Part shown: in pieces, positions 1-64,000 of the stretch
Layout: the number at the start of each line of letters is the position of its first letter
Position numbering within the stretch: position 1 is the first letter of the stretch
Source of the DNA: Schmidtea nova
Lineage: Eukaryota
DNA: 64,000 nt
Direction: 5' to 3'
Assembly (NCBI GenBank): GCA_044892505.1
Contig: CM097883.1
Location: 163,928,001 to 163,992,000, forward strand
Program-made: the position numbers and the translations under genes
Notes under the pieces: model-generated
What the model saw: only the letters and a program-made list of their open reading frames with translations
What the model was told of the DNA's origin: nothing
Database searches by the model: none

Positions 1-1088
1 GAAAAATACATAAAGTTACTTTATATTGTTAAAAATTTGAAAATTCAAAATAAAACATGTGTGCATCACAAAATACGACAACTTTCAGAATTCTAATAAA
101 GCCATTTTGTAGACAATTAAATTTTATCTATACTTTATTACAATGAAAACTCAAAAAAGTTATTTTATTTAGGTGAAATATACAAATTTAATGACAAAAC
201 ACGTGTGCACAACAATATACACAACATTTTGAATTTTTTATTCAGCCATTTTGTAGACAATAAAATTCTGTCTATCTATTGTTTCACTAAAAACTCGATC
301 GGGCCGGTTTATCGACTCGAAAAAGGCGTTTGAAGTTTTGTAGTAGGAGGCTGTGTCCGGTCTGCCACCCTTCCCATGTGTGAACTCATATATTTTTTTT
401 ATTAAATTTAAAATAAAATTTCATATTTTTAAAAAATTAAAACAAAAAATTCATATAATTAAAACAAATATTCTAGTTATTTAAAACAAAAATTCACTTA
501 ATTTAAACAAAAATTCACTTAATTTAAACAAAAATTCACTTAATTTAAACAAAAATTCACTCAATTTTAAAATTATATGAAATTACGTAATTATATATGA
601 AATTACATAATTATCGGGTTTTATTAAGCACACTTGATTACGTAATGATTATGTAATTATGTGTGCTGTACAAAACCCCGAGCGATAACGTAATATACAC
701 ACATGGGGGGGGGGGGTAGTGGTTCAGACCTGACATAGCCTCCTACTACAAAACTTCAAACGCCTTTTTCGAGTCGATAAACCGGCCCGATCGAGTTTTT
801 AGTGAAACAATAGATAGACAGAATTTTATTGTCTACAAAATGGCTGAATAAAAAATTCAAAATGTTGTGTATATTGTTGTGCACACGTGTTTTGTCATTA
901 AATTTGTATATTTCACCTAAATAAAATAACTTTTTTGAGTTTTCATTGTAATAAAGTATAGATAAAATTTAATTGTCTACAAAATGGCTTTATTAGAATT
1001 CTGAAAGTTGTCGTATTTTGTGATGCACACATGTTTTATTTTGAATTTTCAAATTTTTAACAATATAAAGTAACTTTATGTATTTTTC
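1..1088. repeat. Large inverted repeat (fold-back): arm 1-340 is the reverse complement of 749-1088, around an imperfect inner hairpin 341-748
   Basis: Read base by base, 1-340 and 749-1088 appear to be identical reverse complements (mirror sum 1089). The inner arms 341-403 and ~697-748 are only imperfectly complementary. The left arm runs off the window. Confidence 0.95.
484..567. repeat. Four tandem 21-bp repeats (aaacaaaaattcacttaattt) in the loop of the terminal hairpin
   Basis: Units start at 484, 505, 526 and 547. Degenerate copies lie just upstream. Confidence 0.9.
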
Positions 1089-1800
1089 ATTGTAATAAAG
1101 TATAGGTAAAATTTAATTTCCTATAAAATGGCTTGATTAGAAAATTAGTTTGTTGGTGTGTTTGTAATGCACACGTGTTTTGTAATTAATTTTACATTTT
1201 TCATGTATATAAAATAACTTTTTTGAGTTTTCCTTGTAATATTATATGTGTAAAATTTAAATGTCTACAAAATGGCTTTATTAGAAATCTGAAAGTTGTC
1301 GTATTTTGTAATACACACGTGTTTTGTAATTAATTTTGCATTTTTTGTGTATATAAAATAAATTTATTGAGTTTTCATTGTAATAAAGTATAAGTAAAAT
1401 TTAATTTCCTATAAAATGGCTTGATTAGAAAATTAGTTTGTTGGTGTGTTTGTAATACACACGTGTTTTGTAATTAATTTTGCATTTTTCGTGTATATAA
1501 AATAAAATTATTGACTTTTCATTGTAATAAAGTATATGTAAAATTTAATTTCCTATAAAATGGCTTGATTCAAAATCTAAATGTTGTCGTTTTTCGTGTT
1601 ACACACGTGTTTTGTAATTAATTTTGTAAGTTTTAGTTATTTAAAATAACTTTAGTGAGTTTTCATTGTAATTACATATAGATAAAATTTAAATATCTAT
1701 AAAATGGCTTGATTCAAAATTAAGTATATTGATATGTTTGTGATGCACACGTGTTTTGTAATAAAATACTGGGATTTTTTCGACTATTTAGCATAGAATT
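820..1800. repeat. Subterminal tandem array, 7 units of 144 bp
   Basis: The anchor aaaatggct occurs at 837, 981, 1125, 1269, 1413, 1557 and 1701 (constant 144-bp period). Most units carry the palindrome ACACGTGT, and alternating subtypes are visible. Confidence 0.92.
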
Positions 1801-2160
1801 ATCGAATATTTATTGTAATCATGTGTAGATATAATTTAATTTTCTATCATATACTAATGAAAATTATAAAGGTTTTGTGTGTGTTATTGACAATTCTAAT
1901 GTATTTTATCAAAATTAATTAAAATATTTTTTATAACTGACGTAATTATTGAATTGTAATATAATTTAGACGTAATTTACTGAAATATTTAGTCTAATAT
2001 ATTTTAATCATATGACATGCATGCAATTCATTGAAATATTTTATAACTTTGATGTGTATTATAATTTGTTGAAATAACTTTTCTAGTTTTTTTAAAATAC
2101 TGCAACGTAATATATAATTAGTCATAATTCTCTATCTGATGATAATAATACCTTTACTGC

Positions 2161-2262
2161 CTCTTACTCGATTCTGATTGGCTAATAAGAATAAATTTCC
2201 TACCCCTTACTCGATTTTTATTGGTCAAAGGTTATGTGTGTGTAATAACTTTGATATATAAA
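2161..2262 (+). promoter_or_regulatory. Putative Pol II promoter of the PolB gene: two inverted CCAAT boxes plus a TATA box
   Basis: A duplicated cttactcgatt..attgg motif places ATTGG at 2177-2181 and 2220-2224. TATATAAA lies at 2255-2262, ~50 nt upstream of the ATG at 2312. Confidence 0.55.
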
Positions 2263-2311
2263 CAAACCTTTTTCATTCATTATTCACTTTAACAAATAAT
2301 AAACATTAAAA

Positions 2312-5300
2312 ATGAACATGATAACAAGTTTTATGAACGAAAACCCAAGTGGAAATGAAAATGGTAAATTTATTTTTTAATTTATTATCATTTAGTATTA
2401 ATTTAGGTAATATCAATAATTCAATTGGGAAATCGATGTTAGAAAATACAGAAGAAAATGGTACTTGATCATTAACTTAATAAATTATTTAACTTTTACT
2501 TTAGGGGATGTAAATATGACTGAACAAACTACCGTACAAGCTGAGATTGTTAATAACGAGAATATTGTGAATAATGGAGTTATACCTGATGTGGTATTGA
2601 ATGTTCAATGTAAGTATTGATTAATTTTAATTATATTTCGATAATTATTTTAATCAATTTAGTAAATAACTTTAGTAAAATATTTGTAAATATATATTTT
2701 TGGTAATATTTTGTAATAATTTAGATAATCTTTACTTTACGTAAACAGTTAATTTAAACAAATTTCTTAAATATTATTTTGTAATAAGTTTTATATTAAA
2801 TTTAAATTATTTTAATAATTATTATATTTCATATTTATTTTCTAATAATTCATATTTTTTATTAATTTATTTTAATGATTTTTTTGATAAATTTAAAGAT
2901 ATTTCATATTAAGGTAAATTTTATGCGAATTATTGTAAGTCGTCAAATCATAACGATTGCCACAAGTTAATGGAGCGATTCTATCGTATTATAAATAACC
3001 AAGTCACCTTCTATTTGTGTCCCACATGTAAGAGCGCCCAACATATAAATTACATTGATTTTTATTTCCAACATTATCTCCACTTAAATCAATTCTCATG
3101 TACTAAGAAAAGTCTTTTCGCATTAATTAATAAAAGTAAACGACGAAATGTTACTGTTTGTCCTAAACCATCTAAAATAAATGTAATATCTGATGATGAA
3201 GATGTCCATTTATCAAATGACGATGTTTTAGTTATTCCTAATTTACATGTTGTCCAATATGGCGGTTCTGTTGAACCTTTGGTTAAATATAATTTGAAAA
3301 AATCGCATGCCATTGTTAAAATGGATGTGGATTCTTTAAATTTAAATAAATTAATTATTCCTTCAGCTTTATTAAATAAATTTAATTCAGTTATTTCCAA
3401 AATGGGGTATGTAAAAGTTCAATTCTGCATTGATGTAGAATTTGAAAAGAATAAGCAATTTCAATCTTTTATAATATCAAATTCTGCAAAACCAATGAGT
3501 GATACCTTTTTAGATGAAGGTATTGCTCTATTAAATGAAAAAAATACTAAAGTCTGCGAAAATGGCAGCAATTGGTTAATTAATAAAATTAAAGAAATAA
3601 GCTTTAAACTTACAAAATATTCACAGATAAGTAGATTGAGCGGTAAAGGTTCTTGTTCAACTCCACCATCATTAAATGCAAAACGTTGCACTGTCAATGT
3701 TAAAAATACTGATAACTTGTGTTTTATATATAGCATCTTGGCTATTTTAAAATACGATGATGTAGATAGCAATCATCGAAATAGAAATAGAGCAACTAAT
3801 TATAATCCCTCAGACCTTGTGTTTGATTCTTCTGATCTTCCTATGAAATTATGTAATATACCCAAATTTGAAGCGAAAAACCCCGGGTTGGCAATAAATG
3901 TCCTTTCATATGACGAGTATGATCTAAATAATATTAATGAGGAAGAGGAAGTCATGAAACATCCATTTGTAGATATTATTCATAGGTCAAAGGTTTTAGG
4001 TGGCACTCCAATTAATTTGATTTTGTTAGAGGAAAATGACTCTTTTCATTATATTGCAGTTACCAACATTAACAGACTTCTAAATTGTGACACTCTTTCT
4101 GTTACTGATGTTCAAATAAGGTGCACGTGGTGCGAGCGTTGCTTGAATGGTTTTAGATTGACTGAAGCTTTTGAGAAACATCAGGCTTTATGCACAAAAA
4201 ACCAGTTAGGTACAACTTTGTATACTTTGCCTTCAGATAAGAACTTGGAATTTAAAGATTGGTCAAAAATTGTTACACCTCCTTTCGTTGTATATGCCGA
4301 TTTTGAGGCTGTTTTACCCAAGGACGATAAGTATTTTCAACGCCACTTGCCTATTTCTGCTGGCTTGTTGCTTATTAATAACTTTACTGGCGAAAAATCG
4401 TATAAAAGTTTTTATGGTCTTAACTGTGTAGAAGAGTTTTTGACTGAAATCAATGATATAGGAGAAAAAGTAGTTTTACCTTACTTTATAAATAATTCCA
4501 AAAAGAAAATGGAATATCTTTCTCCTGCGCAAATAAGATCATTTCGTAGTTCTATTATTTGTTATTTGTGTAATAAACCTTTGAAAAATCCGGTTAAAGA
4601 TCATGACCATTATACAGGTAAATACTTGGGTGCAGCTTGCTCTAAATGCAATTTTTCTCGGCAAATAAGATTCGTCATGCCTGTACTATTTCATAATTTA
4701 CGCGGATATGATTTACATCATATCCTCAAGTATGGTTTAAATAAATTCGATAAATGGGATATAAGTTGTATTCCTACTACAAGTGAAAAGTTTTTGACTT
4801 TATATGCAAGAGTCGATAGTTTGACTATTAAATTTATCGATTCTTGCCAATTTGTAAGCTGTAGCTTAAACGATGCTGTAAAGACTTTAACAGATTTTCC
4901 TCTTACTTCATCCGAATTTATAGGGACTATTATTACATCCAAAGGTATATTCCCATATAATTTTGCAACATCTTTAGAGGTTTTACAAAATACATACGAA
5001 TTGCCACCGATTTGGGAAGGAGTTAAAATCGACGAGTATGAAAAAGCTCAACAGATATGGGATGAATTTAATTGTGAAACATTGTTTGATTATATGATGT
5101 TATACCTGAAATTGGATGTTTTCTTACTTGCCGACTTTTTTCAGCAATTTAGGTCAAAATCCATTGCACATAACCGACTTGAGCCTCTTAATTTCTTGGG
5201 AATTCCAGGTATGTCATGGAATTCAGCTTTGATGACTTTGAAATCTCCTATCGAGTTGCTTCAAGATATGGAGATGTATAATTTTTTCGAAGGGGGGATC

Positions 5301-6680
5301 CGTGGTGGGTTAACATTTGTTAACAAACACCATGTAGTATCCTCCGACGACACTGAGCTTCTTTATATAGATATAAATAATTTATATGGGTGGGCTTTAA
5401 GCCAAAAACTACCTTATAAAGAATTTAAATGGGTAACTGATAGGGAAAAATTAAATAAAATAATTTATTACTGTGAATCTGCTGATTTAGAAGTATTAAC
5501 ATTTGGATTTACATTAGAAGTCGATTTAGAAATTCCTGATTCGATTCACGACAAGCTGGATGATTTGCCAGTTGCCGCTGAAAAGATGTGTCCACCTGGC
5601 TCAAAGGTTGAGAAGTTGATGCTTACGCATTATCCCAAGAAGAACTATGTTCTTCATTGGAGACTTCTCAAACTTTTTCTTTCTCTTGGAGTAAAAATAA
5701 CTCATGTCCATAGGGCAATTAAATTTAAACAAGCATGTATTTTTAAGGATTACATCGATACCAATACCAGACTTAGAGCAGAATCAAGTAATGCTCTCGG
5801 TAAAAATTATTATAAATTATTAAATAATAGTCTCTACGGTAAAACCGTAGAGAATCTTAAAAAGCGCATAAATTTAAGATTATGTAATTCGGCTTCTAGG
5901 CTGATTACATATACTTCTAAGCCAACTTTTAAAAGGACTTTCGAAATTGACGATGATTTAGTTGCAGTGTTGCTGAATCAGGAATCGGTGTGTTTGGATA
6001 GACCCAGCTACATTGGTCAAACTGTACTGGATCTATCTAAACTTAGGATGTACCAGCTGCAGTATGAAGAGTTACAAAAATATCGTAACGAATTCAACTG
6101 CGAAATCAACATCGTTGCTGGTGACACCGATTCGTTTTTTCTTGAGATTAGAAATTGTAAGCTTGATATTCTTTTACCGGCCATGATAAGAGATAACTTA
6201 CTTGACACTTCTAATTATGATCTGAATCACCCATTATATAGTAGGAACCTTGATTCTGTCATTGGCAAATTCAAAGACGAGAATAAAGGGCTTAAGTACG
6301 AGGAGTGGGTGTTTCTTAGACCTAAATGTTATAGTCTTTTAGGTGACGAGGAAACTAATAAAGCTAAGGGGGCAACATTGGCGGGTACCGACATAAAGCA
6401 TCAGTCGTACCTGGACTGTTTTAATAATAACCAAATATTTTCTGTTCCCCAAACGAGAATCACAAGTAAAAATCACCAACTTTTTACCATTAAAAATGAA
6501 AAGATTGCACTGACAAACGCAGATGATAAAAGGAAATGGGTGGCGAAAAATAAAAGCTTGGCATATGGCCATTATATGGAAGGTGACTTGGTTATATTTC
6601 AACATACCGATCCAAGAATCAATCCAGATCAACAATTCCAAGATCCACCTGGAGATATCCAAGATGAAAGTTTTATTTAA
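2312..6680 (+). CDS. polB: Protein-primed family B DNA polymerase (Polinton-type); predicted exons 2312-2363, 2407-2460, 2505-2609, 2914-6680
   Basis: The 1236-aa ORF 2970-6680 has Exo I YADFE, Exo II HNLRGYD, Exo III YLKLDV, KGIFPY, motif A YIDINNLYG, motif B KLLNNSLYGK, motif C GDTDS and RPKCY. An inserted EndoVII-like CYLC..DHDHYTG..CSKCN is present. Three GT-AG phase-1 introns join the upstream exons in frame. Polymerase identity is very secure; the splice model is ~0.7. Confidence 0.93.
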
Positions 6681-7180
6681 ATAAAATTTGTTGAAAAAAC
6701 TTTGTTTTCATTTATTTGGTTATATATTGTACAGATTAGTTTCAGTCTGTTTTTTATATTTTGGGTAACAATTTTTAGAAACAATGGTTATGTCATAATA
6801 ATGATAGTAATATTAGTAATAAAATAATAAATAATTAGTTTAATATTTATCGTATTTCACCATGTAATTTTTTTTGTTGTGCAGAATTGTCTCATTTTGT
6901 TATATGCTTATAATATTTTGATGAGTGCTTTCATTGAACGTTTATCATTGAAGTTGTAGAAAAATATTAAGAACAATAATAAATTATATTAACAAAAAAG
7001 TAAATTAATAATATTAAAAAAAAAAATAAATAACTAATTAAAATAAATTAATAAAAAAAATTATTTAAATAAAAAAAAAAGAAATAATTTAATAATAAAA
7101 TAAATAATAAAATTCCAAACATTTAAACAAAACACACTTTAAAAATGGCGCCAAAAAAACGCGCGATAACTCATAGTGAC

Positions 7181-7205
7181 GCAGACCTGACACATCCTCC
7201 TACTA
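7181..7205 (-). repeat. Right terminal inverted repeat of the PolB element
   Basis: gcagacctgacacatcctcctacta is complementary to 341-365. Homology with copy 3 stops at this motif. Confidence 0.8.
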
Positions 7206-9189
7206 TCTTATGTAAAAATAATTATAAACAAATCTATCATCAATTTTATTTAAAACTAAATAAATAAAATTATTTAAAATGAAGTTATGATAAAAAGAGT
7301 TTTCCTCTTTATTTCAAAAAGTAATGATTTATCTTACATGTCTGACAATACGCTGTGCGTGATAAACGCTTGCTAGTTTGTCAGTGATATGTTCTGGCAC
7401 CGAGATCGTTTTCTATTGCAAAATCCTCATTAAAGACAATATTCTTGCATAATAATTTATTGATTAGTTATTTTATTTTTAGTAACTGAGAATTTTCTAC
7501 TTGGAAATAAAATTTTAGATGGCTTTTTCTTTTGAACTTTGTCAAGTAATTTCTTTTTTATTGTATTATTATTTGGCTCTCCCAGCCACTACTCCGACTG
7601 TCCTAGCATCACTGTCATTAGCAAATGTGAAAGAACTTGCAGAAGTAGCAGATTGAATCGATTAAGTAACACAAACCAATAACCTAATCGTCAACGCGAT
7701 TTGCAAAAGAAAACGGAAACTACTAACAAAATTCTAATCGTAAAAGCCATCGAGAAATTATCTCAGAAATTGGGAAATTTACTATTAGATAGATACAGAA
7801 AAAACATTCACGAAATAGCTCCAACCGTTCCAGGTATTGGGAGAAAACTGAATTTTGTTTAAATAACGCGTTAATACAGCATGTAGGGAGCGCGCACGAC
7901 GTAAACTTAAAATAGGATTGAGAAAAACACCAAGTAAAACACAGTAATAACAAAGCACACAAATAATTAATTAAAACACGTTTACGAATTAAAATGAACA
8001 AAAGCGTATCAAATGTACACGTGAAAAACACACATAACATAAAACATCAATTATGTAATAAAATTAAAAAGTAGGAAAAATTAACATAATTTTAGAAGGA
8101 AAATTTCGATTTTTAGCGTAAAATTTCAAAAAATATAAAAGAAAATTGTTTTGGTTAAAAATTTTAGTACATTAAACTAAATTAGAGAAAAACTTTAATT
8201 CAAAAGTAAAATTTTTGATTAAAAATAAATTATTTAAAGTTTTATTAAAATTTTATGCAAAAATAATAATTCAATTTTGCTTAAAATTATTAAAATTAAT
8301 TTTGAAAGAATCGAAAATTTCTTCTAGAACAATTTGTTTTAATACATCAACGAAAATAGCAGTTTGAAACAAATATATATACCGCCATCAAAATGGAAAT
8401 CATCAGAGAGAACTTGCTTAAAAACCTTTGGAAATTTTCTGCGAAAGTGAAATTTTCGAAGAGTTTTTACACTGCAAACTGGTAAAAACTGATAAAGATG
8501 AACCCCTCGAAAGATTTCCAGAAACACTCAATCAGTTTCCGACTTACAGAAGTTTTGCAAAAAATCCAAGACACGTATTCGTGATTTCAGACGAACATAA
8601 TCCAATTTATTTCTAACCGCATTCGAACCAAGCGAAACCCATACGAGTAATTATGTAAGGATCTTGAAATTTTCTGTTATACAGGCTAGCGAATCATGCC
8701 TTCGTTACACTGCCGTAGGTTTTTTTGATTTATTTTCAATTTATTTTGAATATTGGTAATGTGTTATGATATGGTTAAATATGTATTTATTACTTTTTGG
8801 AAAATTATAATTTTTAATTATAATTTTTCAATTTTTAAATTTTGACTAATTTTTAATCCCGAAACTTTCCTAATATTTATCTTTAATAAGGCAGCGCAAG
8901 ATTTTTTTTAATCTTTTTGCGTGACTAAGGAACGAGATTTTTAAATAACTTGAATATCAAGTATATAAAGTATTTTATATTTCACTGAACCTACGTTCTA
9001 CTTTTTTAAAATGAACTATAAACAGAATAAATCAAAACAATAGGTCTGGAAGAAATTACAAGTAAATTATTGATAATCGAACTTAGTAATTTTTATTAAA
9101 TATACGATAGTAACACAAATAAAATTAAAAGAATTTTAAATACAGATTTCATATTATCATAATTATTAGTTATAGATTTTAATATAACT

Positions 9190-10885
9190 TAATGAGATCC
9201 TCGTGCTTGGTGCAAATCACAAAGATACTTTATATATGGTTCTAATTTGGTGAGCTTCATTCTCAAGTCTTCTAGTTGATTCACGTTCTAACAATTTCTT
9301 TTTTTCAGCAGCAAATCATTCAAATTACTAAAATCACACTCAGCTAAATACAAGGAAAGAAAAAGTAGCAGCAAATTTCTCGAAAACTTAGATGTATTAG
9401 GATATTTTGTCTCTGTTTCCATTCAAAACCACGTCTTTAGTCCCTTTAAATGAAAACAAGTTCTAATTGATTCATAATTTTTGTATTTCTGAGAGTTTTT
9501 CTTGATAATAAATATTTGTTTTATCTGATAAATTCACGAACATTGGCTGCATTATCCAGGCTGGAAAGTCGATTTCTTTTAAATCTGTAAATCTCTCTGT
9601 CAAGTCGGCTGAAAAAACTTTCAAGTAATTGTCAATAGCAAGTATAGCGTCGTCTGTCACATTGCATCTTTGGAGCCAATAAAATCTAACAAAGTTTTTC
9701 CTACAGATATCTTTTCACCACAATTCAATATTGGCAATGAACCCAAATATCTTTGCTTTAGCATCAGTAATAGTTCTATTTACTCCTTGAAGCTAGCTAT
9801 TTAATATACTTAGTTTTTCAAAGACATCTGCTAAATAACTTAAAAGTGCTTTGCCATCAACTACCAAAAGATACATCATTTCCGGCTTGTTGTACAAAAG
9901 GTTCTTTACAACATCAAATAGTTCCATAAATCTTTTTAAACAATTTCCTTTTGAAAGCCACCTTACTTCAGTATGATATAAAAGCCTAACATAGTCTGAA
10001 TTTTGTTCTTCACAATATAACTTAAACAAACGTTCGCATTTTGCACTAGCTTTAATGCTATTGATACATTTTATAACAGAATTTAATATTTCTCGGTGAA
10101 TAACACAGTGTATGAGTAGCATTCCTGGAGTCTCAGCTTTCATCATTTTTAAGTAGCCATTTTTCTTCCCCATCATATTAGGAGAACCATCTGCAGCACA
10201 AGAAATAATGTTCACAAATGGAATATTATTTACATTTAAATAATCTTTTAACTTATTGTATATATCTTTCGCCGTGTTGGTGCTTTCTAATGACTTACAA
10301 AACAACATTTCTTCGGCAAAATCCTCTTTATCAACATATCTCAGATAAGCTATCAATATAGACTCACTGTTTCTGAATGTTGATTCATCCATTTGCAGTG
10401 ACAAATATTTTGTTCTGAGTTTTTCAACAAGTTGTTTTTCAACATTTTCACTCATTTCGTCAATTCTCCTGCTTACACTATTGTTGCTAAGCGGCATAGA
10501 TTTTACATAGGTATCGTCTTTTCGCAGAATCGTTTTAAGAAATGTTGATATTGTTGGCTTGATAAAAAATTTCGCCAATCATTTGATTTCCCCGGATTTG
10601 GCAATAAGTAATGCAATCTGATAACTGGCCTCGAGTGTACGATTAGTATTTGCAGTATTAGCTGCAAATAAAGTTTTCAACATATTTCTTTTTTCAAAGT
10701 TTTCTTTTAATTTTTAAAAGTAATTCAAATCGCAATTGGCCTGTGTGTCATGGATTCATTAGTCAAGGTTTATTGTCATAAAAGACAAAGGAAAAGTCTT
10801 TTGTCTTAGTCAGGTGGTACAAAACCAAATTTTAAATATTCCTCTGGATATTGACAATTTTTCCTTTTACTTCCATTACTCATTT
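9190..10885 (-). pseudogene. Decayed hAT transposase (Buster/Charlie, ZBED5/SCAND3-like)
   Basis: ORF 9793-10578 contains LSNNSVSRRIDEM, LSLQMDEST, CAADGSPNMMG, HCVIHRE and EVRWLSKG. The N-terminal QYPEEYLKFGF and C-terminal HQARGSH lie in other frames; several stops and frameshifts are present. Confidence 0.9.
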
Positions 10886-11344
10886 TTATGGGCTGAAAAA
10901 ATAAACATGATCAATAAAAAAAACTAAAAAGTTCACATATGCTTAATTAACATATTTGTATAAGGAAAGAATATATAAATAAAATAGTAAAACTAAATGA
11001 ACCAGTTTTCTTTGAGTCCTTTATATTAGTAGCAGCCACCGATATTATTAGCTGTTAAAGCAAAATTAAAAAGAAATTTTTAATAATTTATTACATTTAA
11101 AAAATAAAACAAACAAAAGTTTAGTTAAGTAATGTTAAAGCAAAATTAAATTAACTTTTGAAAATAAAAACTATAAATTATAATTTTTGGCTGTAAATAT
11201 CTTTAATTGATTTATTCTGTGAAAACGATTAACCAACATCATCTTATTATCTATAAGATTGCAAATTTCGCAATACTTATTATTTAAAATTTCATACAAT
11301 TTATTTTCTTCCTTGATCCTAAATTTATTTTTCCAATTTTCCCT

Positions 11345-11545
11345 ACTCATGTAAACATATTTTAGAGGAACGAAACTTTACTATATTTACAGATCATAAA
11401 CCTTTGGTACATGCCATAACTATGAGAGACTCACCTCCTCGACAACAGAGACAAATCTCATTTATTGCTGAATACAATTGCACAATTACATTTATAGCTG
11501 ACAGAGAAAATATTGCTTCCAATTGTCTTTCTAGAAGTTATGAAG
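11345..11545 (+). pseudogene. Isolated Ty3/Gypsy RNase H C-terminal fragment
   Basis: Translates as HILEERNFTIFTDHKPLVHAITMRDSPPRQQRQISFIAEYNCTITFIADRENIASNCLSR, the typical TDHKPL...N..AD.LSR block. Confidence 0.8.
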
Positions 11546-11589
11546 ATGCCATTTTTTATGAAGATGCTCTTCTTGATACCTTGGCTAAT

Positions 11590-14255
11590 CCAAAAGTTTT
11601 TAAGCATCTTTGTGTTGAAATCATCCACAGGTCAAAGGTTGTTGGGGGTACTTTTATCAACTTGATTTTATTTGAAAGTGGTGACCATTATCATTATGTT
11701 GCAGTCACAGATTTTGAGACAACAAATCTCTTTCGATTGCTCGCGTACAAAGTATATGGTGTCATCGATGTTGAATGGATTTCGAAAACAGGAAGCATTC
11801 GATTGTCATCAAGAGTTGTGTGCTAAAAACCAATTAGGCACAACTCTTTATACTCTGCTTAGAAATAAAAATTTTACTAATTGGGAAAAAACAATTACTC
11901 CACCTTTTGTAATTTATGCCAATTTTGAGGCAATCTTAACTACTGACGATATTTATTTTCAAAGACATGTTCCCATTTCATCAGGACTTTTATTTGTAAA
12001 TAACTTTACAGGTTGAAAAATATACAAGAGTTTCTTAGGTCTTGATTGCGTTACTAATTTTCTTTCAGAAGTTAATCACTTGTCGGAATCAATTGTTTAT
12101 CCCTTTTTTAAAAATAATTATAAAAAACCTCTTTTCATAACTGTGGCTCATCAGCAAGCTTTTTCTTCTGCAACCCTCTGTTACCTTTGTAAAATGACTT
12201 TAGTAAGACCGGTTAGGGATCACGACCATTACACTGGTGAATATTTGGGGCTGCTTGTAATTCATGTAATCAAGCCCGTCGAATTTACAAGTTATTGCCT
12301 GTCATTTTTCACAATTTAAAGGGTTATGATCTTCATCATATCCTTAAATATGGATTATCGAACTTAAAAAAAGGGAAAATATCTGTGATTCCAGTTACTA
12401 GTGAGAAATTCTTGACTTTATCTGCTCGAGTTGGTGCTTTAACTATTAAATTCATCGATTCATTAGTTTCTTAATTCTAGTTTAAATGACACTGTTAAGA
12501 CTCTTACTTGTTTACCTTTGACTTGCTCAGAATTCACTGGGACTATAGTTGATTGTTAAAGGATTTTTCCTTATAATTTTGCTACATCTTAAGAAATTCT
12601 TAACAACACTTATGCGTTGCTACCAATCTGTGAAGGCGTTACTCAATCCGAATATGACAAGGCATTGGTGATTTGGTTGGAACCATAGTGTCAAACCTTT
12701 TGTGGTTATACGATGGTTTACCTTATACTTGATGTATTTCTTCTTGCCGATTTCTTTCACGAGTTTAGGGCTAAATTGATTGCTCATAATCGACTTGAGC
12801 CATTGATTCTTTGGGGATTTCAAGTATGTTGGAGTCTTCTGCGCGTATTAACTTGGATAAACCTATTGAGTTGCTCCAGAATATGGAGATTTATAATTTC
12901 TTTGAAGGATTGATCCGTGGTGGTTTCACATTTGTCAACAAGCACCATGTAGTGTCCTTTGAAAGGATAGAATTGCTTTACATTGACATTAATAATTTAT
13001 ACGGGTGGGTTTTAAGCCAAAAATTACATGATGGGAAATTTGAATGGATTACAGATCAAAATCAATTAAATAAAAAAAATAAATTTAATCGATGCTGATT
13101 TAACTATATTGACTTATGGTGTTACTTTTGAAGTGGATCTCGAAATTAATTCTGAAATCCACGATAAATTAAATGATTTCCCCATGGCAGCAGAAAAAAT
13201 ATGTGCTTCGTGTTCAAAAGCTGAGAACTTGATGCTTACGCATTATTCCAAATCGAACTATGTTTTTCATTTGAGGCTTCTCAAGATTTATCTTTCATTA
13301 GGGGTTAAAGTCACTTAAGTACATGGGGCTGTTCTATATAGACACAAACACCCAACTTCGGACCGCTTCTTCAACGGCTCTTGACAAGAATTATTACAAA
13401 CTACCTAATAATAGTCTTTATGGTAAAACTGTCGAAAACCTTAAGAAAAGATTAAATTTAAGGTTGTGTAATTCAGCATCAAAGCTGATTACGTATACTT
13501 CAAAACCCACTTTACAAAAAACATAAAATTGACAATGACTTAATATCTGTACTTCTTAATAAAGACTCTGTGTGCTTAGATAGACCCAGTTACATTGAGC
13601 AAATCGTACTGGATCTATCTACACTTAGAATGTATATACTCTAATATAAAGAATTGCAACAATATCCCAATGAATTCAACTGTGAGATTATTATAGTTGC
13701 CGGTGATACAGACTCTTTCTTTCTTGAGGTTAAAAATTGTAAGTTGGATACTCTTTTGTCTGCCATGGTTATAGATATGTTTTTGGATACCTCAAATTAT
13801 GACCCGGAACATCCTTTGTATTCTAGAAACCTTGATTTCGTCATTGGAAAATCAGATGAAAATAAAGGTAAGAAATATAAGAAATGGGTTTTTCTTAGAC
13901 CAAAGTGTTATAGTTTGTTTGATAAAAAGATTCTATTAAAGCGAAGGGAATAACATTGAAGGGCACTGACTTAAAACATCAGTCTTATCTGGATTGTTAT
14001 CATAATAATTCTATAGTTTCCATTGAGCAGTCTCGATTTGTAAGTAAAAATCATCAAATCTTTAGTAATAAGTCTACAAAAGTTTCCTTGACTAATCTTG
14101 ATGACAAAAGACTTTGGATAGGTAAAAATCAGAGTCTTACTTATGGTCACTATAGGGGTATAGATGTGGTTATGGGGGTTAATAATGTGGAAGAAGAAAT
14201 CAATAATGCCGACGATTGCGATGATGTTGTTTTTCTTCATATTTTTAATAAATAA
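11590..14255 (+). pseudogene. polB: Second PolB copy: 5'-truncated, frameshifted, divergent subfamily
   Basis: Fragments are colinear with copy 1 from about aa 330: VEIIHRSKVVGG, YANFE, DHDHYTG, YIDINNLYG, KLPNNSLYGK, AGDTDS, RPKCY. Many stops and frameshifts. Confidence 0.92.
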
Positions 14256-14836
14256 ATTTTTATTTAAAAAATTGTTTTCATTGTTGTTCGAAAATTTAAT
14301 GTTTTGAGATTGTTCGAATTATTTGGGGAAAATCTTTGGGAAATGTGGGAGTCTTTTTGTAAAAATTAGTCGGATGAGATTTCAAGAAAATATATTTTGA
14401 CCTTTTTCAAAATTTTAGAAATTGTGGGAGTCGACCTTTTTGCACGTAAAATTTGGTAGGATGAGACAGAATTTTCATGTTTTTACGTTTTTACCTTTTT
14501 TGTTCGTCGTTCAATTATCAGTAGATAGATAAAAAAATATTGAAATTTTGGATTCCGTGTAAAATGTGGTGGGTTGAGATTTCAAGAAAATATTTTTTTA
14601 CCTATTTTGTTCCGCATTCGAATAAAATTATTTAATTCTGATGAAACCTTTACTAATTGTGACTTTATCCGGTGTTTTTGATTTGGGAAATGTGGGAGTC
14701 TATTTTACGTGAGAAATTGTAAAATTTTCATGTGTTCTTTATAAATATTGTCAAAAATTGAAAAATTTCACTTATTTTAGATAATTTTACAAAACAAATT
14801 CATTAATTTTGATAATTTTACATAATTTAATTTAAC

Positions 14837-15070
14837 TGTAAAGAATAAGAATGACTTTTGAAGTTCTAAAACTTTATTTATGAAATCTTGGTACTATTAA
14901 TAGTACCCGGTGTGCCGATACCAGCACAATCAGCAAAGCTTCTTGGGAAATAATAAGCAATGATGTCATCTGAGGACCCAGTCAATCAAGCATAATCAAT
15001 CACACATGCAGGCATGACACAATATATAATAGGGGTTAGGGAAATCAAAAATACCATTATAATTACATCA
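14837..15070 (-). repeat. Gypsy 3' LTR (234 bp)
   Basis: Direct repeat of 19438-19672, preceded on the minus strand by a polypurine tract. Confidence 0.95.
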
Positions 15071-15266
15071 AATCCCCCTCGTTTTAAATGACTTAAGCCA
15101 TTCCATACCTGTTATCTTGCTTGTTTCTGAGATCTTCCTTGACGAGTACCAATTCACCGACTCCGAAAGATCTATGTATTCGATTTTCCAGATTATAATT
15201 ATTTATACGGTTCAATGATTCAATATTCAATGCTATTTCATGTTTTTTTTGTTCTTTAGCATTAAT

Positions 15267-17955
15267 TTATGGACCATTAGTAAAACGCTCTTTGCAAAAT
15301 GTTCTTCCATAAATTACTTCAACAGAACTAACTTTTATACTTGACTGCATTGTTGAATTCATTGCAAATTCTATATGAGGAAATGCTTCTTCCCATGTCT
15401 TAAACTGTTTCTCTTCCAAACAGCAGGAAATCCAGTCTCTTAGCATTCTAAATTGCCTTTCAATTTGTCCATTAGATTGATGATGATAAGGACTTGAATA
15501 AACAATCTTCAAGTGATACTTTACTGCCATATTTTTAAAAGCTTGGGATTCGAAACATTTTCCTTTATCAACATGAATTTCCTTTGGTGGTCCAAACTTC
15601 AATATCCACGAACTTTCCAGATTATCAATTAATGTCTTTTCTTCTTGTGTTCTTACAGCTTTTAATAATATATATTTACTAAAATAATCTATTATAGCCA
15701 TCATATATCTTTGGCCAGATGGTGTCATTTTAAAAGGGCCACAAAAATCAATATATATTTTTTCAAATGGTTCATGCGCAATTAGTTTTTCATTAACTTC
15801 TTTTGTTTTACCAGTGAATGTTTTACGTTTCTGGCAAATTTTACAAGTTGTGATAATTCTCTTAATACTTTTGTCCATTTCTTGGAAATTATAATAATTC
15901 TTTATGTAGCTTGTCGTTTTGTTGATTCCTGCATGACACAATTCTTAATAGATTTCTAGTATAAAATCGTTTTTCAAATATGAAGGAATATATATTTTAT
16001 TATTATGAGTCATAATAATTCCATTATCCACATAATAATCTTCAGTTTTTGCCGTTCTGTATGTTTTCTTTTATTTCCATTATTTCTTCAGAATTACTTT
16101 GCCATTTAAATATTTGATCTTCTATCGACATTCCTAAAATTTTAGTTTTAATTCTTTCTGCTTTAGCATCAATATGATTCATCTGACATTGTGTGCAATT
16201 TCCAATATTCAGTCGTGATAGTGCATCCGCATTATTGTGTTTCTCACCTTTGCGATATTCTAATTTCATGTCCAAACTACTTAAAAAATTTATCCAATTT
16301 TGAAACTGAGCGGTAATTGGTTTTTTTGTAGTTAACATAAATGTGATTGCCTTATGATCAGTTCTTAAAATAATTTTTTTTCCGTACAGATAATGTTTAA
16401 AATGCTGTGTAAAATGGAAAACAGATAATAATTCCTTTCTTGTTATACAGTACCCAATTTCATGTTTATTCATACTTTTTGAACCATATGCGATTATCTT
16501 TTCTTCATTATCGTCACCTCTTTGTGATAAAACAGCACCAATACAATCAAAACTAGCATCGGTGTCTAAAATGAACGTTTTATTAAAATCCGGATGACAT
16601 AGTAATGGTGCACTGATCAAACTATGTTTTTACTCGTCAAAAGCTTTTTCACATTGTGATGTCCAAATAATACTTTTGCTTTTACCTCCAATTAAAGATT
16701 CCAATGACCTAGCTATTTTTGAGTAATTTTGAATAAATTTCCTAAAGTAATTACATAATCCTAAAAAGCTCCTAAGATGTTTCACACAATTAGGCTGCTT
16801 TACATTTTTAATTGTTTCAATCTTAGACTCATGTGTTTTAATACCTTTTTCATTAATTATATGTCCAAGAAACTTTAATTCAGATACTAGGAACTTGCAT
16901 TTCTCAGGGTTAAATTTTAGTCCAGATTTCCTAATTCTAAGGAAAAGCTTATTTATTCTTTTGCTTTGTTCTTCAATAGTTTTCGAAAAGATCAGTATGT
17001 CATCTAAATAGACTAATGCTTCATTCCACATCATATCTCCAACTATTAATGTCATAAGTTTTTGAAACGTTGATGATGCGGCAGCTATTCCAAAAGGCAT
17101 CCTATTAAAGCAAAATTGGCCCTGTCTTTTAGAAAATGTTGTTTTCAATTTACTCTCTTCATCCAATTCAACTTGATAATAAGCCTTTCTTAAGTCGATC
17201 GATGAAAAATATTTGGCCCCATACAAAGAATCTAGCATTTCATCAACATTGGGAATCGGAAACGCTGGTCTTACTGTATTTGAATTTAAAATTCTAAAAT
17301 CCAAACATATTCGAATTTCAGAAGTTCCCTTTTTTGGCACACATACTATTGGTGAATTCCAAGGTGATTCACATTTCTCTATAATTTTATTTTCTTCTAG
17401 GTTTTTAAAAATTTCCTCTAGTTTTTCCTCATAGTGCATTGGTTGTCGCCGTGGCTTAATTGGTATTGGATTGCAGTTAGTTTCTATTCTGTGCTTTAAA
17501 ATATCTGTTTTGCCTATATCCCATTTATTACACATAAAAATATCTGAGAATTCAATAATTATTTCATATATCGGATTGCATCTTTCAATTTTCAATATTT
17601 CATTAATATATTTATTTTTATTATTTAATTTTAAATTATAACCAAATTTTGTTTGCAAACTGAGGACATTTTCATTACAAAATTCAACTAATTTAATATT
17701 TAAAGAATTCAATATATCTATTCCTATAATTACTTCTGGGTATAATTCCTCTGCAACGAAAAATTCTCCAGTTATTTCTTTATTGTTGAACTCTAACCTT
17801 AAAGAAACTTTCCCTAAAATCCCTAACATGCTACCGTTGGCACAAGATATCTTTCTATTTCCTTCATTAAAATATTTTAAATTCAGTTTTTCAGCAATCA
17901 TTTTAGATAAAATACTTATCTTTGCTCCTGTGTCAAATAATGAATTAAAAGTCAC
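15267..17955 (-). pseudogene. pol: Gypsy pol (protease-RT-RNase H-integrase), disrupted
   Basis: ORFs 16630-17955 (PR/RT), 16042-16620 (RH, same frame after one stop) and 15267-15941 (integrase: IDFCGP, DKGKCF, SNGQIER). Confidence 0.93.
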
Positions 17956-19437
17956 ATTATTCGATTTAACATTATTAAATGGTCTACCATCTACCTTACA
18001 ATATCATATATCCTATATATCTTTAATAACATTTACACTCAGTAATTTTAATTTTTTATTAAATATATTTAAAATAAATTCTTTTTTATAACAATCACTC
18101 ACAAATATACAGTCATTCTCATTTTGTTCATTATTACAATTATTAATTAAATAAAAATCATAATCAGATTTTTGATTGGGGAAAAATCAACATTAACATT
18201 ATCAAACAAACAATCAACCAAACAATCATTACATTCAACATTTAGGGTCCTCAAAAATTTATCATTGCTTACATGTGATTTATCGTTCCTAACATATCCC
18301 CTCTGCTCGGAGCTTTGGCATTTCTCGATATCTCTGACTGTACATCATAGTCTCTCGATTCGTCATCATCTACTGCAGCCACGCGATCTCCATTGTTTCG
18401 ATCATTTTCTTGATTAAAACTTCGATTGTATCGATTGAAATTTCCATTGTTTTGATTCGAAGTTCATTGAAATCTCATCTCGTAGTGATGTTGTTTATGA
18501 AAACATTGAAAACTTAAATGACCTGCTTTTCCACAACACGAACAACGAATATTTGGGCATTCTCGACGAATATGACCAATTTCACGGCATGCGTAACATT
18601 GCACTTTTGAATATTGATCTGAACTTCGATTTTGATAAGTGTTTCCATTTTGAGGTCTTCCACTGAAATTTCTACTGAAATTCCTTTGATAATCTGATCG
18701 TCCTTGAAATTGATTTCTTTGTAATTTTGAAAATTCATTTTTATCAATTTGATTTCACTGATTTCCATAACTATTTCTTTTTTCATTAGAATTGTATCGA
18801 CCGTTTTTCACAATTGACGCTTAAGAGGCATTTCCAACGGCTGAAACTTGTTGTATCTTTGATTTATCTTCATCCAATTTCTGTAAAATTCTTTTAATAT
18901 ATTTATTTGCCGTTGTACCTTTCTGTACTGACTCTCCATCATTTCTGAAGTCTTCTTTCGATAATTTTACTTTCAGAAAATCTTCCGTCATTTCATATCT
19001 TTTTATTTCATGTTTTTCTTCTTCATTATCAAGACAATGCTTGAGGAAGAATGTTGTCAAATTTGACATTGTTAGCTTGTGCTTCAGAATTTTCTGAACG
19101 CCTTTCTAAATTTTGCTGATGTATGTTTCTGCATCATCTTCTCTTTTTCGATAATTTAGCAAATTTTCCAAATCTTTAGCTAAATCCTGGTTTACTTCGA
19201 ACGCTAGTCTAAGCCTTTTCACATAATCTTCTTCATCTGGAATCTTGTCATATTTGTTGCGGCAATTTTCGTCCAAATAAACTCGAACAAATACCTTTCT
19301 TTGACTATTGTCTAACTGAATAATTGAAAAATATGATTCAATCTTCTCATTAAATTCTTCCAAATCGTCTCCAATTGAATAAATTTTCAGCTGTGGGAGA
19401 ATCCGTAATAATTTCTGAGTTGAAAGCGTGGTCGCCA

Positions 19438-19672
19438 TGTAAAGAATAAGAATGACTTTTGAAGTTCTAAAACTTTATTTAAGAAATCTTGGTACTATTT
19501 ATAGTACCCGGTGTGCCAACACCAGCACAATCAGCAAAGCTTCTTGGGAAAATAATAAACAATGATGTCATCTGAGGATCCAGTCAGTCAAGCATAATCA
19601 ATCACACATGCAGGCATGACACAATATATAATAGGGGTTAGGGAAATCAAATATCCCATTATAATTACATCA
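19438..19672 (-). repeat. Gypsy 5' LTR (235 bp)
   Basis: Direct repeat of 14837-15070, immediately followed by the PBS on the minus strand. Confidence 0.95.
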
Positions 19673-57995: not shown

Positions 57996-58469
57996 ANNNN
58001 NNNNNNNNNNNNNNNNNNNNNNNNNNNNNNNNNNNNNNNNNNNNNNNNNNNNNNNNNNNNNNNNNNNNNNNNNNNNNNNNNNNNNNNNNNNNNNNNNNNN
58101 NNNNNNNNNNNNNNNNNNNNNNNNNNNNNNNNNNNNNNNNNNNNNNNNNNNNNNNNNNNNNNNNNNNNNNNNNNNNNNNNNNNNNNNNNNNNNNNNNNNN
58201 NNNNNNNNNNNNNNNNNNNNNNNNNNNNNNNNNNNNNNNNNNNNNNNNNNNNNNNNNNNNNNNNNNNNNNNNNNNNNNNNNNNNNNNNNNNNNNNNNNNN
58301 NNNNNNNNNNNNNNNNNNNNNNNNNNNNNNNNNNNNNNNNNNNNNNNNNNNNNNNNNNNNNNNNNNNNNNNNNNNNNNNNNNNNNNNNNNNNNNNNNNTA
58401 TAGGAATTTGAAAATAAAACTTGATTGGAAAACAATTAGAAATTTACTAGAGAAATAACAAAGAGAAAC

Positions 58470-60216
58470 TGGTCGCGCCCGCTCTTAAAATATTTTAAAA
58501 TTAATAAAATAATAATTAAAATAATTAATCGGGTGCTTGATCGCTATGAGAGATTGTGGGGCGAGCCTGGAAGCCGTTAGACAGTCATATCGAAATCTAT
58601 ATAAAGCTTATATGATGCAAGTATTGATTTAACTCAATCTGAAGACGAAAATGTTCACGTGAAAAAGAAACGATCTGAATCATCACATGAAACTTATAAT
58701 CATAATCTAATTCAAATAAACAATGATATCTTTAAAGTTTTCTACTCCACCGAAGATCTTTGTGAACAATATCTCTCAATGCAACGGCAAATAAATCGCT
58801 AAGTCATTAAAACCCAATACTCGATAAATTGCCCAAAATGTCACATTCAATTTCTAAATTGTAACTACCTTTGGATAGTTCGGGAATTCTGCGTGGAGTT
58901 CAGCAGGTGGCGATTTCTCGGCGTGCGCACGCGGACGCGAGGGTCTTGGAATCGCTGTTTAAGTTGGAATTATGCGTGTAATTGTCTGTGTGCGCGTCTG
59001 TGATATGTGGTGATCAGATATTTGGGCTTTTGGTGTCGTTCTATGGGAGCTTGCTACATATGGGTTATCTCCTTACCCTGGAATAGAATTACATGATGTT
59101 TATCATATCTTAGAAAAAGGCTATCGAATGGATCGTCCTGAAGGATGTCCAGAAATAGTATATGGGATAATGCTCCAATGTTGGCAATGGGATCCATTAT
59201 TGAGACCATCATTTGCTCAATTGTACTCAAAACTATATTATATTTGTTTCTCTCAGAATGTCGATTGGTCATATCAATTCAACAACTCATTAAGCATGGA
59301 TAAAAGCCAATTTAAAACATCGAAGGAATCTTAATGAAAACGCGTTTCATCGCGTCTGTGTGCGCGGTGGTGTTATATCGATTCGTGTTTTCTTAGCATG
59401 CGCACACAGACGCGAGTAGTTCCAGGTTGGCTAAGAATAATTAATCCATGAATTGGAGTTTTTGGACTTTTAATTTTGCGAATGTATTTGTAATTTTTTT
59501 GGAGATTTGGAATTATGAATAAAAATCAAGATGTTTTAAATTTGTTTAATATGCATTACTTATGAATTCTTAAATTATTGAAATGTCATATCGCTCTCGA
59601 TTTAAAAATGTTGCCGATACTATGGAAGAAGAAGCTCGCAAATTACAAGCAAATGAAGAACCTGCAATCGTTTATCATCAGTTTATTGAAACTTTTGAAG
59701 AGCCACCGAAAGTTAATAAGACATGGGTTAAAGGTGCTGGTAAACTCTATCAGCTGTTAATGAAAAAGGTGGATTTGGAACTGATTAAGCATTTGATTGG
59801 CGAGGTAATGGTTTGGTGCTTGGGACATGCTGATTCAGCTGAGGATGTGTTGGATATCATTTTCACACAGATTGATAACACTGTTGGATATGCTACCGAT
59901 AAATCTGTTGAGAATTCCAATGCTGCTGGTCTCAATCAGATTGTTGTGTTCCTTTTCCTCGTTTCGGATATCCTTCACAATTCCTGCACTAGAGTGCGAA
60001 ACACGTCTTTTGATCGGAAATACATCGAAAACAGATTGCCTCAAATGATGGTATTTCTGAATCAATCTTGTCTAGCGATTGCTAGTGATATGTTTACCAA
60101 TCCCGATAGATATCCTTTGTCGGATAGTGAGGAGAATTTCAATTTGTCAATGATTAAATCTCGCGTTCTCAGTCCAAAAAATGAGGAAAGCAATCGGAGC
60201 TGGATGCGCCGATCCA
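58470..60216 (+). repeat. Inferred 5' LTR (~1747 bp, TG...CA)
   Basis: Starts TGGTCGCGC and ends GCGCCGATCCA (imperfect inverted termini) one base before the PBS. Only the first 598 bp can be verified against the 3' copy in this window. Confidence 0.65.
59014..59334 (+). pseudogene. ABL: Captured, uninterrupted Abl-like tyrosine kinase C-lobe fragment (subdomains IX-XI)
   Basis: [69 protein letters not shown] closely parallels c-Abl [37 protein letters not shown]..RPSFA. It is preceded by an in-frame TGA, and its start is repeated at ~63947-64000. Confidence 0.88.
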
Positions 60217-63200: not shown

Positions 63201-63374
63201 AATAAAGGCATCATGCAAGAGGCATGGATGCAAAGAATTGATTGGAAGGAAATACTTCCTCCAGAAATGATAAAGAAGATAAAGGTGGCGAGTCTTCCAC
63301 ATTCAGAATTAAAGGCGGACTCGTGGAGAGTTATTATTGGTCATGGAGAAAGAGAGAAGTGGATGAAGTGTTGA
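59583..63374 (+). CDS. 1263-aa chimeric ORF: U2SURP N-terminal and CID fragments, HSP90 middle-domain fragment, polyubiquitin piece, duplicated helical segment, long coiled coil, possible BEL/Pao pol-like tail
   Basis: [33 protein letters not shown] (U2SURP CID). [40 protein letters not shown] (HSP90, 60723-61022). Full ubiquitin at 61065-61292 bounded by RLRGG on both sides. No stop codons. Confidence 0.85.
60218..60235 (+). other. Primer-binding site complementary to the 3' end of tRNA-iMet
   Basis: The first 11 nt TGGTAGCAGAG are the complement of the metazoan initiator tRNA end CUCUGCUACCA. Positioned directly after ..CCA-T. Confidence 0.8.
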
Positions 63375-63389
63375 TGTTGACAGAATGTC

Positions 63390-64000
63390 AAAGGGGGGAG
63401 AATGGTCGCGCCCGCTCTTAAAATATTTTAAAATTAATAAAATAATAATTAAAATAATTAATCGGGTGCTTGATCGCTATGAGAGATTGTGGGGCGAGCC
63501 TGGAAGCCGTTAGACAGTCATATCGAAATCTATATAAAGCTTATATGATGCAAGTATTGATTTAACTCAATCTGAAGACGAAAATGATCACGTGAAAAAG
63601 AAACGATCTGAATCATCACATGAAACTTATAATCATAATCTAATTCAAATAAACAATGATATCTTTAAAGTTTTCTACTCCACCGAAGATCTTTGTGAAC
63701 AATATCTCTCAATGCAACGGCAAATAAATCGCTAAGTCATTAAAACCCAATACTCGATAAATTGCCCAAAATGTCACATTCAATTTCTAAATTGTAACTA
63801 CCTTTGGATAGTTCGGGAATTCTGCGTGGAGTTCAGCAGGTGGCGATTTCTCGGCGTGCGCACGCGGACGCGAGGGTCTTGGAATCGCTGTTTAAGTTGG
63901 AATTATGCGTGTAATTGTCTGTGTGCGCGTCTGTGATATGTGGTGATCAGATATTTGGGCTTTTGGTGTCGTTCTATGGGAGCTTGCTACATATGGGTTA
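63390..64000 (+). repeat. Polypurine tract (63390-63402) and partial 3' LTR (63403-64000)
   Basis: The purine run ends immediately before the TG at which identity with 58470 begins. Confidence 0.88.

Follow-up and report, generated by a model that had tools for sequence, protein, structure and literature searches.

The first 7,204 bp of the window (the whole 64,000-bp stretch of Schmidtea nova DNA that was analysed, G000:C2:163928001-163992000) belong to an integrated mobile element that is palindromic over almost its entire length of 13,321 bp. It begins outside the window, at G000:C2:163921884 (window position -6116), and is a member of a family with a fixed centre, of which the genome contains hundreds. 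Within each copy the two arms are nearly identical up to an inner copy of the element terminus at the base of a central loop. Judging from sequence comparison, fold-back synthesis at this inner terminus probably re-copies one arm, which would keep the arms identical; we assign this reading a rough probability of 0.55.

As stated in a preliminary description of this DNA, the outer parts of the palindrome are identical (no mismatches between 1-340 and the reverse complement of 749-1088) and the inner parts are diverged, with two mismatches between 341-364 and 725-748 and only loose homology beyond, up to ∼399. The description suggested looking at the sequence left of the window, and there the mirror runs on for another 6.1 kb, into an inverted, intact polB. 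With this neighbouring sequence included, window -6116..364 aligns with 725..7204 over 6481 columns with three mismatches and one gap. The left arm thus comprises 1..341 (minus strand) and its continuation to -6116, and the right arm comprises 748..7204 (plus strand, 6457 bp), with one substitution and one gap relative to the left one. The outer ends of the element read AGTAG...CTACT and are flanked on both sides by the 6-bp sequence ATCTTA, the right copy of this target-site duplication (TSD) being at 7205..7210 (plus strand) and the other one preceding the left end. In a paralogous stretch 13.7 kb leftward (8.3 kb, 99.78% alike) the site lacks the element and ATCTTA is present once only, at window -19795, representing the empty site. 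The two stretches, 7205-15506 and -19795..-11494, form a tandem duplication, which may be either true or the result of two haplotypes assembled in tandem.

The AGTAG-type terminus is present four times, at the two outer ends and as a facing inner pair, head a (342) and head b (747). The outer ends and the 6-bp duplication show that the inner terminus is AGTAG at 342 and CTACT at 747, correcting the TAGTAG at 341 proposed earlier; moreover, what had been taken there for the terminus of the element is an inner motif of a 13.3-kb integrated one. The right outer terminus (...CCTCCTACT, 7180..7204, minus strand) is of the same type as the right end of two complete Polintons, L161+162 and L163+164. 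Between the arms lies an asymmetric loop of 406 bp (342..747) with 21-bp tandem repeats at ∼477-581. It is predicted to fold with the two heads paired (z = -9.76, none of 100 shuffled sequences being as stable). In each of the first 100 genome matches, head a (AGTAGGAGG..., 342..386, plus strand) adjoins an arm. The region of head b (649..747, minus strand) contains ∼93 bp homologous (82-83%) to the left end of a complete Polinton. An end of this type borders host DNA, with a 6-bp duplication, in four half-length copies. A MITE inserted at the palindrome centre was considered and rejected, as the flanks of 342-747 are inverted and do not form a direct duplication, and no stand-alone spacer was found among the fetched loci.

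Each arm consists of a 144-bp tandem array and one long ORF. The array (793..1847, plus strand) has ∼7 units, the unit number differing between copies and sometimes between arms. The ORF (2970..6680, plus strand), the only one longer than 110 aa in 342-7204, encodes a family-B DNA polymerase of the protein-primed (Polinton) type of 1236 aa, with the motifs DINNLY, KLLNNSLYG, and GDTDS. The frame is open in both arms, the two intact polB arms being 99.94% alike. Candidate short spliced coding exons, read from the sequence, lie upstream at 2312..2610 (plus strand) and likewise at the centre of a second palindromic family described below. Pfam matches the protein only to Endonuclease_7 (residues 530-562, E = 1.2e-4), a match that falls short of the Pfam cut-off; no Rep/HUH match was found in this sole long ORF. 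PF03175, the organellar and viral type-B polymerase domain, is present in many of the 120 listed homologues, though uncalled by Pfam on the query itself; many homologues also carry PF02945.

The same genome contains complete Polintons, four of which were fetched (14,786-15,242 bp, with 6-bp duplications). Their polB is 97.5% identical to that of the window, window 2658-7204 is 96% identical to their right part, and head b matches their left 93 bp. The ORFs of one of them, L161+162, which have the same starts in the other complete elements, include a Pox_A32-like ATPase, an rve integrase, and a TBP-like match. The latter gene, at L161:3719-4195 (minus strand), matches PF00352 with E = 4e-16. 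The integrase frame is broken by an apparent intron, behind which the open frame continues. For a 406-aa ORF there is only a jelly-roll lead (PF21738 on 30% of one Atlas cluster), and searches for its capsid identity yielded neither a Pfam match nor a PDB sequence match. When eleven ORFs of the complete element were compared with the arms, polB alone matched, the integrase, packaging ATPase, and capsid genes being absent. Since the ends are shared and polB is nearly identical, while the other ORFs have no match in the arms, the palindromic element appears to be an integrated non-autonomous derivative of a Polinton, an assignment that combines our analysis with the family features given in PMC8097293 and PMC6431247, and the complete 14.8-15.2-kb Polintons are likely its helpers. 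The complete Polintons occur in two forms (L161+162 and L163+164 versus L147+148 and L153+154), with either unlike ends sharing only a short terminal motif or left-end-type inverted repeats of 650-700 bp.

An exact-pattern census, which gives lower bounds and yielded no matches for reversed control patterns, found at least 377 a heads, of which 356 follow arm letters, and at least 410 b heads that do so. All 40 copies in which a centre lies between two outer ends show a 6-bp target-site duplication, three of these duplications being uninformative as they lie in simple repeats. This set leaves out loci that are rearranged or have no end in the fetched stretch (e.g., L049+50, L063+64, L089+90, L209+210, L231+232, L233+234), as well as L043+44, L081+82, L099+100, L111+112, and L113+114, whose duplications were read by eye. 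The palindrome is a real, inherited structure; the number of centres and the 6-bp duplications do not support the one-off or in vitro product that had been envisaged. The 27 complete copies analysed first are 13,318-14,777 bp long, and the further 13 include copies shortened by deletion to 7.2-12.1 kb, these sizes being biased by the fetch width of ∼16 kb. There are two polB subfamilies, ∼66% alike in DNA, with a common centre and array, and one hybrid copy (L087+88) has arms from both and an intact duplication. Identical copies occur at different sites with different duplications (L057+58 and L067+68; L083+84 and L101+102), and in L227+228 a new symmetric centre is built from two a halves.

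Some further forms were observed. L097+98, a full-length copy of 13.4 kb with a duplication, has an enlarged 144-bp array and other non-coding DNA in place of polB. L039+40:7677-10001 (2.3 kb) is turned inside out: the spacer forms both outer ends, the array alone lies between them, and there is no 6-bp duplication. Palindromic copies or halves lie inside complete or related Polintons at L221+222, L223+224, L227+228, and L035-L038, which may reflect target preference. The last of these loci belongs to a 46-kb inverted duplication, G000:C3:114439251-114485180 (L216, L035-L038, L217), with 18.5-kb arms that are 99.5% alike, a Polinton with a half element inside, and no 6-bp duplication. In the window itself, 11594-14157 (plus strand) and 45607-48613 (minus strand) are older broken polB copies, 68% and 86% alike, respectively, the second with a degenerate terminus at 45607.

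Summed over 27 copies, the two arms within a copy differ by substitutions at 141 of 181,160 columns (0.08%), and the median difference between copies is 2.2-5.3% (about 3%). In the 25 copies with equal repeat counts in the arms, the within-copy difference is 0.03-0.16% in every distance bin and does not rise toward the centre. The sister arm is the nearest sequence in 22 of the 27 copies, one of the 22 having no comparator; the misses are four ties at zero and one misalignment, that of L033+34. BLAST overstates arm differences where the unit number of the 144-bp array differs, giving 38 for L033+34, compared with 4 by global alignment. Inside the terminus, heads a and b are unlike at 136 of 729 positions (19%), being identical in 4 and different in 23 of the 27 copies. 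Among 54 distinct centres, the variable sites -5, -6, and -10 outside the terminus agree across the two sides in 54 of 54 cases (28, 47, and 43 expected by permutation), while inside it the agreement is 38/54 at +10, 28/54 at +12, and 47/54 at +15 and +16, remains above chance as far as +17, and reaches the chance level at +24 to +26; as the copies are related, these counts across centres and copies are not independent. Because positions -4 to +9 are nearly invariant across the centres, the data narrow the boundary no further than -5 to +10, a span of ∼15 bases. The earlier observation that arm identity changes at the terminus thus extends to the family, the change falling within a few bases of the motif, as fold-back synthesis predicts.

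The half-length copies indicate which inner end is used. For the first 29 distinct loci in which an arm precedes a, what lies beyond head b is an arm in 18 loci, host DNA in four, and rearranged but mirrored sequence in three; head b is missing in four. Among the first 100 a heads, six lack the arm prefix, all six being point variants of the arm, and none is joined to the host, so that host-joined ends number 4/29 for b and 0/100 for a (Fisher p = 0.002). Six of the first 100 spacer-type b heads lack the prefix, four of these being host-joined, and a narrower test on such heads (4/6 for b, 0/6 for a) gives p = 0.06. Genome-wide, the share of heads without an arm prefix is similar for both (13/228 and 21/377), and therefore the asymmetry rests on the fetched loci. 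Half-length copies with both ends found number six, with a 6-bp duplication in four (L041+42, L051+52, L197, L198) and none in L195 and L199. In addition, L045+46 has one degenerate 342-type end joined to host DNA, without a duplication. Hence, the integrase is able to use b as an end, with no clear case for a among the fetched loci. The free end that had been postulated at the 341 side is unsupported by these data: the host-joined inner ends are of the b type, and the scheme suggested by them is the mirror image of the one proposed. In model energies, the 3' end at b pairs with the near a head, 330 bases away, at -31.3 kcal/mol and with the far outer end at -26.7 kcal/mol; the direction of pairing proposed earlier gives -28.8 kcal/mol.

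Substitutions in polB bear on when the arms become matched. Changes present in both arms and common to several copies have pN/pS of 0.13 and 0.21, and those present in both arms and private to one copy have 0.35 and 0.39. The latter values exceed those for the shared changes (p = 5e-6) and differ from neutrality (p = 1.5e-11). For the 31 changes found in one arm, pN/pS is 0.63 and 0.36 (p = 0.11 versus neutrality, p = 0.43 versus the both-arm class). Five copies have the same broken polB frame in both arms. As both-arm changes are under purifying selection, we infer that most of them arose in replicating lineages, not in resting insertions; exchange with helper genes could also contribute.

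The following cycle would account for these observations. In the extrachromosomal state, a strand whose end is the 747 terminus, or a nascent one just past the loop, would pair with the head at 342, and the paired 3' end would prime copying of the arm, yielding a 6.5-kb hairpin. Protein priming at the open end would convert the hairpin into a 13.3-kb duplex, to be inserted into the host by the helper integrase, and the helper capsid may favour dimers of nearly genome length over halves. We counted in favour of fold-back synthesis the target-site duplication with its empty site, the duplications in 40 of 40 copies, the arm identity, the boundary at the terminus, the b-ended halves, the pairing energy, the selection on polB, and the helpers. 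Counted against it were the second family, the a-b agreement up to +17, the hybrid L087+88, the shared broken frames, and the p values of 0.43 and 0.06. Since the hybrid has an intact target-site duplication, re-copying of an arm is not obligatory. The halves may derive from dimers, and not the dimers from halves.

The second palindromic family comprises six copies (L145+146, L149+150, L151+152, L155+156, L157+158, L159+160) of 12.7-13.7 kb, all with duplications, with b-type (helper left-type) ends on both sides and no long ORF. Its loop, 262-274 bp in the two cleanly readable copies, has no termini and contains the start of polB. The arms differ at 0/1963, 2/2761, and 42/2947 positions within a copy, compared with 87/1955, 116/2325, and 369/2132 between copies (three of the six were measurable). 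Matching arms are kept there without inner termini, and therefore an inner end is not needed for arm matching. Given this family, the hybrid copy, and the new centre in L227+228, fold-back at the loop base seems to be a general property of these elements; a free end at b may have been the origin of the 13.3-kb palindromic family rather than a step in every cycle. What is particular to the 13.3-kb family is the intact polB in both arms, the usable central end, and the half-length copies.

A more far-reaching version of the fold-back reading is possible, although we hold it tentatively. It describes a mixed replicon: a half-length Polinton, protein-primed at one end and closed by a self-priming hairpin at the other, that would cycle between monomer, hairpin, and mirror dimer, the dimer dominating by matching the helper length for packaging. 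If true, it would be a DNA-virus counterpart of "copy-back" satellites that has become fixed in the germ line of an animal, and would preserve, as a fossil record, the use of hairpin priming by a protein-primed polymerase.

Rather unlikely, in our view, is a history in which fold-back happened a single time, at the origin of the family, and the element now replicates only as a dimer; displaced strands would snap into hairpins, host mismatch repair would even out the arms, and the inner termini would be relics used occasionally by the integrase, giving rise to halves. This would agree with the matching arms of the second family, which has no inner termini, and with the minority status of the halves, given the arm beyond b in 18 of 29 loci and host DNA in four. 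The a-b agreement above chance at +10 to +17 and the identity of the heads in 4 of 27 copies also fit repair in a hairpin stem. However, although they share one paired stem, the heads are unlike in 23 of 27 copies, with differences at 19% of positions, whereas the adjacent arm agrees almost fully, so that repair would have to stop sharply at this point.

Alternatively, though improbably, the arms could become matched only once they are in the chromosome, through gene conversion such as occurs between the arms of Y-chromosome palindromes, and in that case the structure would say little about replication. The five copies with a broken frame common to both arms, and the higher pN/pS of private both-arm changes relative to shared ones, would fit conversion, but the private changes are still far from neutral. 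Besides, one-arm changes, one-arm changes of repeat number, and the hybrid of two subfamilies persist, and identical copies are found at different sites with different target-site duplications.

We give very little credence to resolution of a dimer junction, extruded as a cruciform and cut by the endonuclease VII-like insert of polB into hairpin-ended halves, similarly to the cutting of junctions in the resolution of poxvirus concatemers. The Endonuclease_7 match and the PF02945 domains of many homologues suggested it, but the match is below the cut-off and equally present in the non-palindromic helper, and the halves end at a precise integrase-type end. Also, endonuclease inserts of this kind in Polinton pPolBs are interpreted as invasions by homing endonucleases (PMC11071308).

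Least credible of all is a fold-back artefact of assembly, polishing, or whole-genome amplification: the palindrome is known here from assembled sequence, and the assembly does contain the above 46-kb inverted duplication, whose ends are not element termini, but an artefact would not explain the 6-bp duplications in 40 of 40 copies, the empty paralogous site, the fixed centre at hundreds of loci, or copy-specific variants that are present in both arms and under purifying selection. Nor do similar fold-backs, the finding of which would have pointed to an artefact, occur nearby, as no inverted repeat of at least 300 bp was found in five flanking stretches totalling 95 kb. The element is contained in six sequencing runs, four of them from one study and none listed as RNA. 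Short contigs from four runs cover all 30 bins of positions 1-8000, and one contig extends over 7204/7205 with 30 letters on the element side, one fewer than required for it to count as spanning the junction.

Hairpin or palindromic deletion derivatives of protein-primed linear plasmids have reportedly been described in yeast by Kikuchi et al. in 1985 and for kalilo by Vierula and Bertrand in 1992. These are episomal laboratory or strain variants. The likeness is that a linear protein-primed replicon has kept a single end, which is present twice, as a palindrome flanking a short unique centre. Unlike them, the Polinton palindrome is integrated with target-site duplications, is present in hundreds of copies, and has a polB under selection and an integration-competent central end. 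To our knowledge, the replication of Mavericks is inferred rather than shown.

With Polintons/Mavericks the element shares the protein-primed-type polB, AGT-type ends, the 6-bp duplication, and complete relatives in the same genome (PMC8097293, PMC6431247). Intact vertebrate Polintons are given there as 12.7-24.6 kb long, a range that includes the total size of the palindromic element, with inverted repeats of 46-1447 bp, whereas the inverted repeats here are 6.5 kb and make up 97% of the element (PMC8097293, PMC6431247). It further differs in having two polB genes, no integrase, ATPase, or capsid gene, and two extra copies of the terminus at the centre. Maverick particles have not been observed, according to the account in PMC8097293. 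Our literature search, which did not extend to Repbase or most subscription journals, turned up no account of Polintons that are palindromic over their whole length; such families may be on record there.

The rolling-hairpin replication of AAV and other parvoviruses (PMC11575299) is similar in involving a self-folding terminal segment that could prime synthesis and both head-to-head dimer and monomer forms. In our element the self-pairing segment 342-747 is terminal in the half-length copies. Unlike in AAV, as outlined there, no Rep/HUH nickase or terminal resolution site was found in the Polinton palindrome, the hairpin is at one end only, and the polymerase is element-encoded (PMC11575299). 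The parvovirus-like self-priming suggested in the preliminary description accordingly holds for the shape, and is weakened by the lack of a Rep/HUH gene and by the second family, whose arms match without inner termini. Endogenous virophages and PLVs of Halocafeteria have ∼52-nt palindromes at the outer ends that are proposed to prime replication, mostly in elements without pPolB (bioRxiv 10.64898/2026.07.28.741278). Both there and here, hairpin priming is proposed for an integrated Polinton-related element; the difference is that here the whole element is palindromic and carries pPolB.

If fold-back synthesis re-copies the arms, it would be a rare and testable clue to the replication of Polintons, with hundreds of integrated copies recording, to within ∼15 bases, where the copying of an arm stops, and also which end the integrase uses. 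The reading predicts a 6.5-kb snap-back species with a protein at one end only, and a size limit set by the helper. The presence of many near-perfect 13-kb palindromes in a single genome is also relevant to genome stability and to assembly practice, as they could be mistaken for artefacts.

The window carries two further repeat-bounded units. An LTR retrotransposon at 14837-19672 encodes a protease, reverse transcriptase, RNase H, and integrase on the minus strand and has direct repeats of 235 bp that are 95.7% alike. At 59583-63374 (plus strand), an ORF of 1263 aa with Hsp90 and ubiquitin matches lies within direct repeats of 605 bp (58463-59067 and 63398-64000, 99.5%), and this unit looks like a mobile element with captured host domains.
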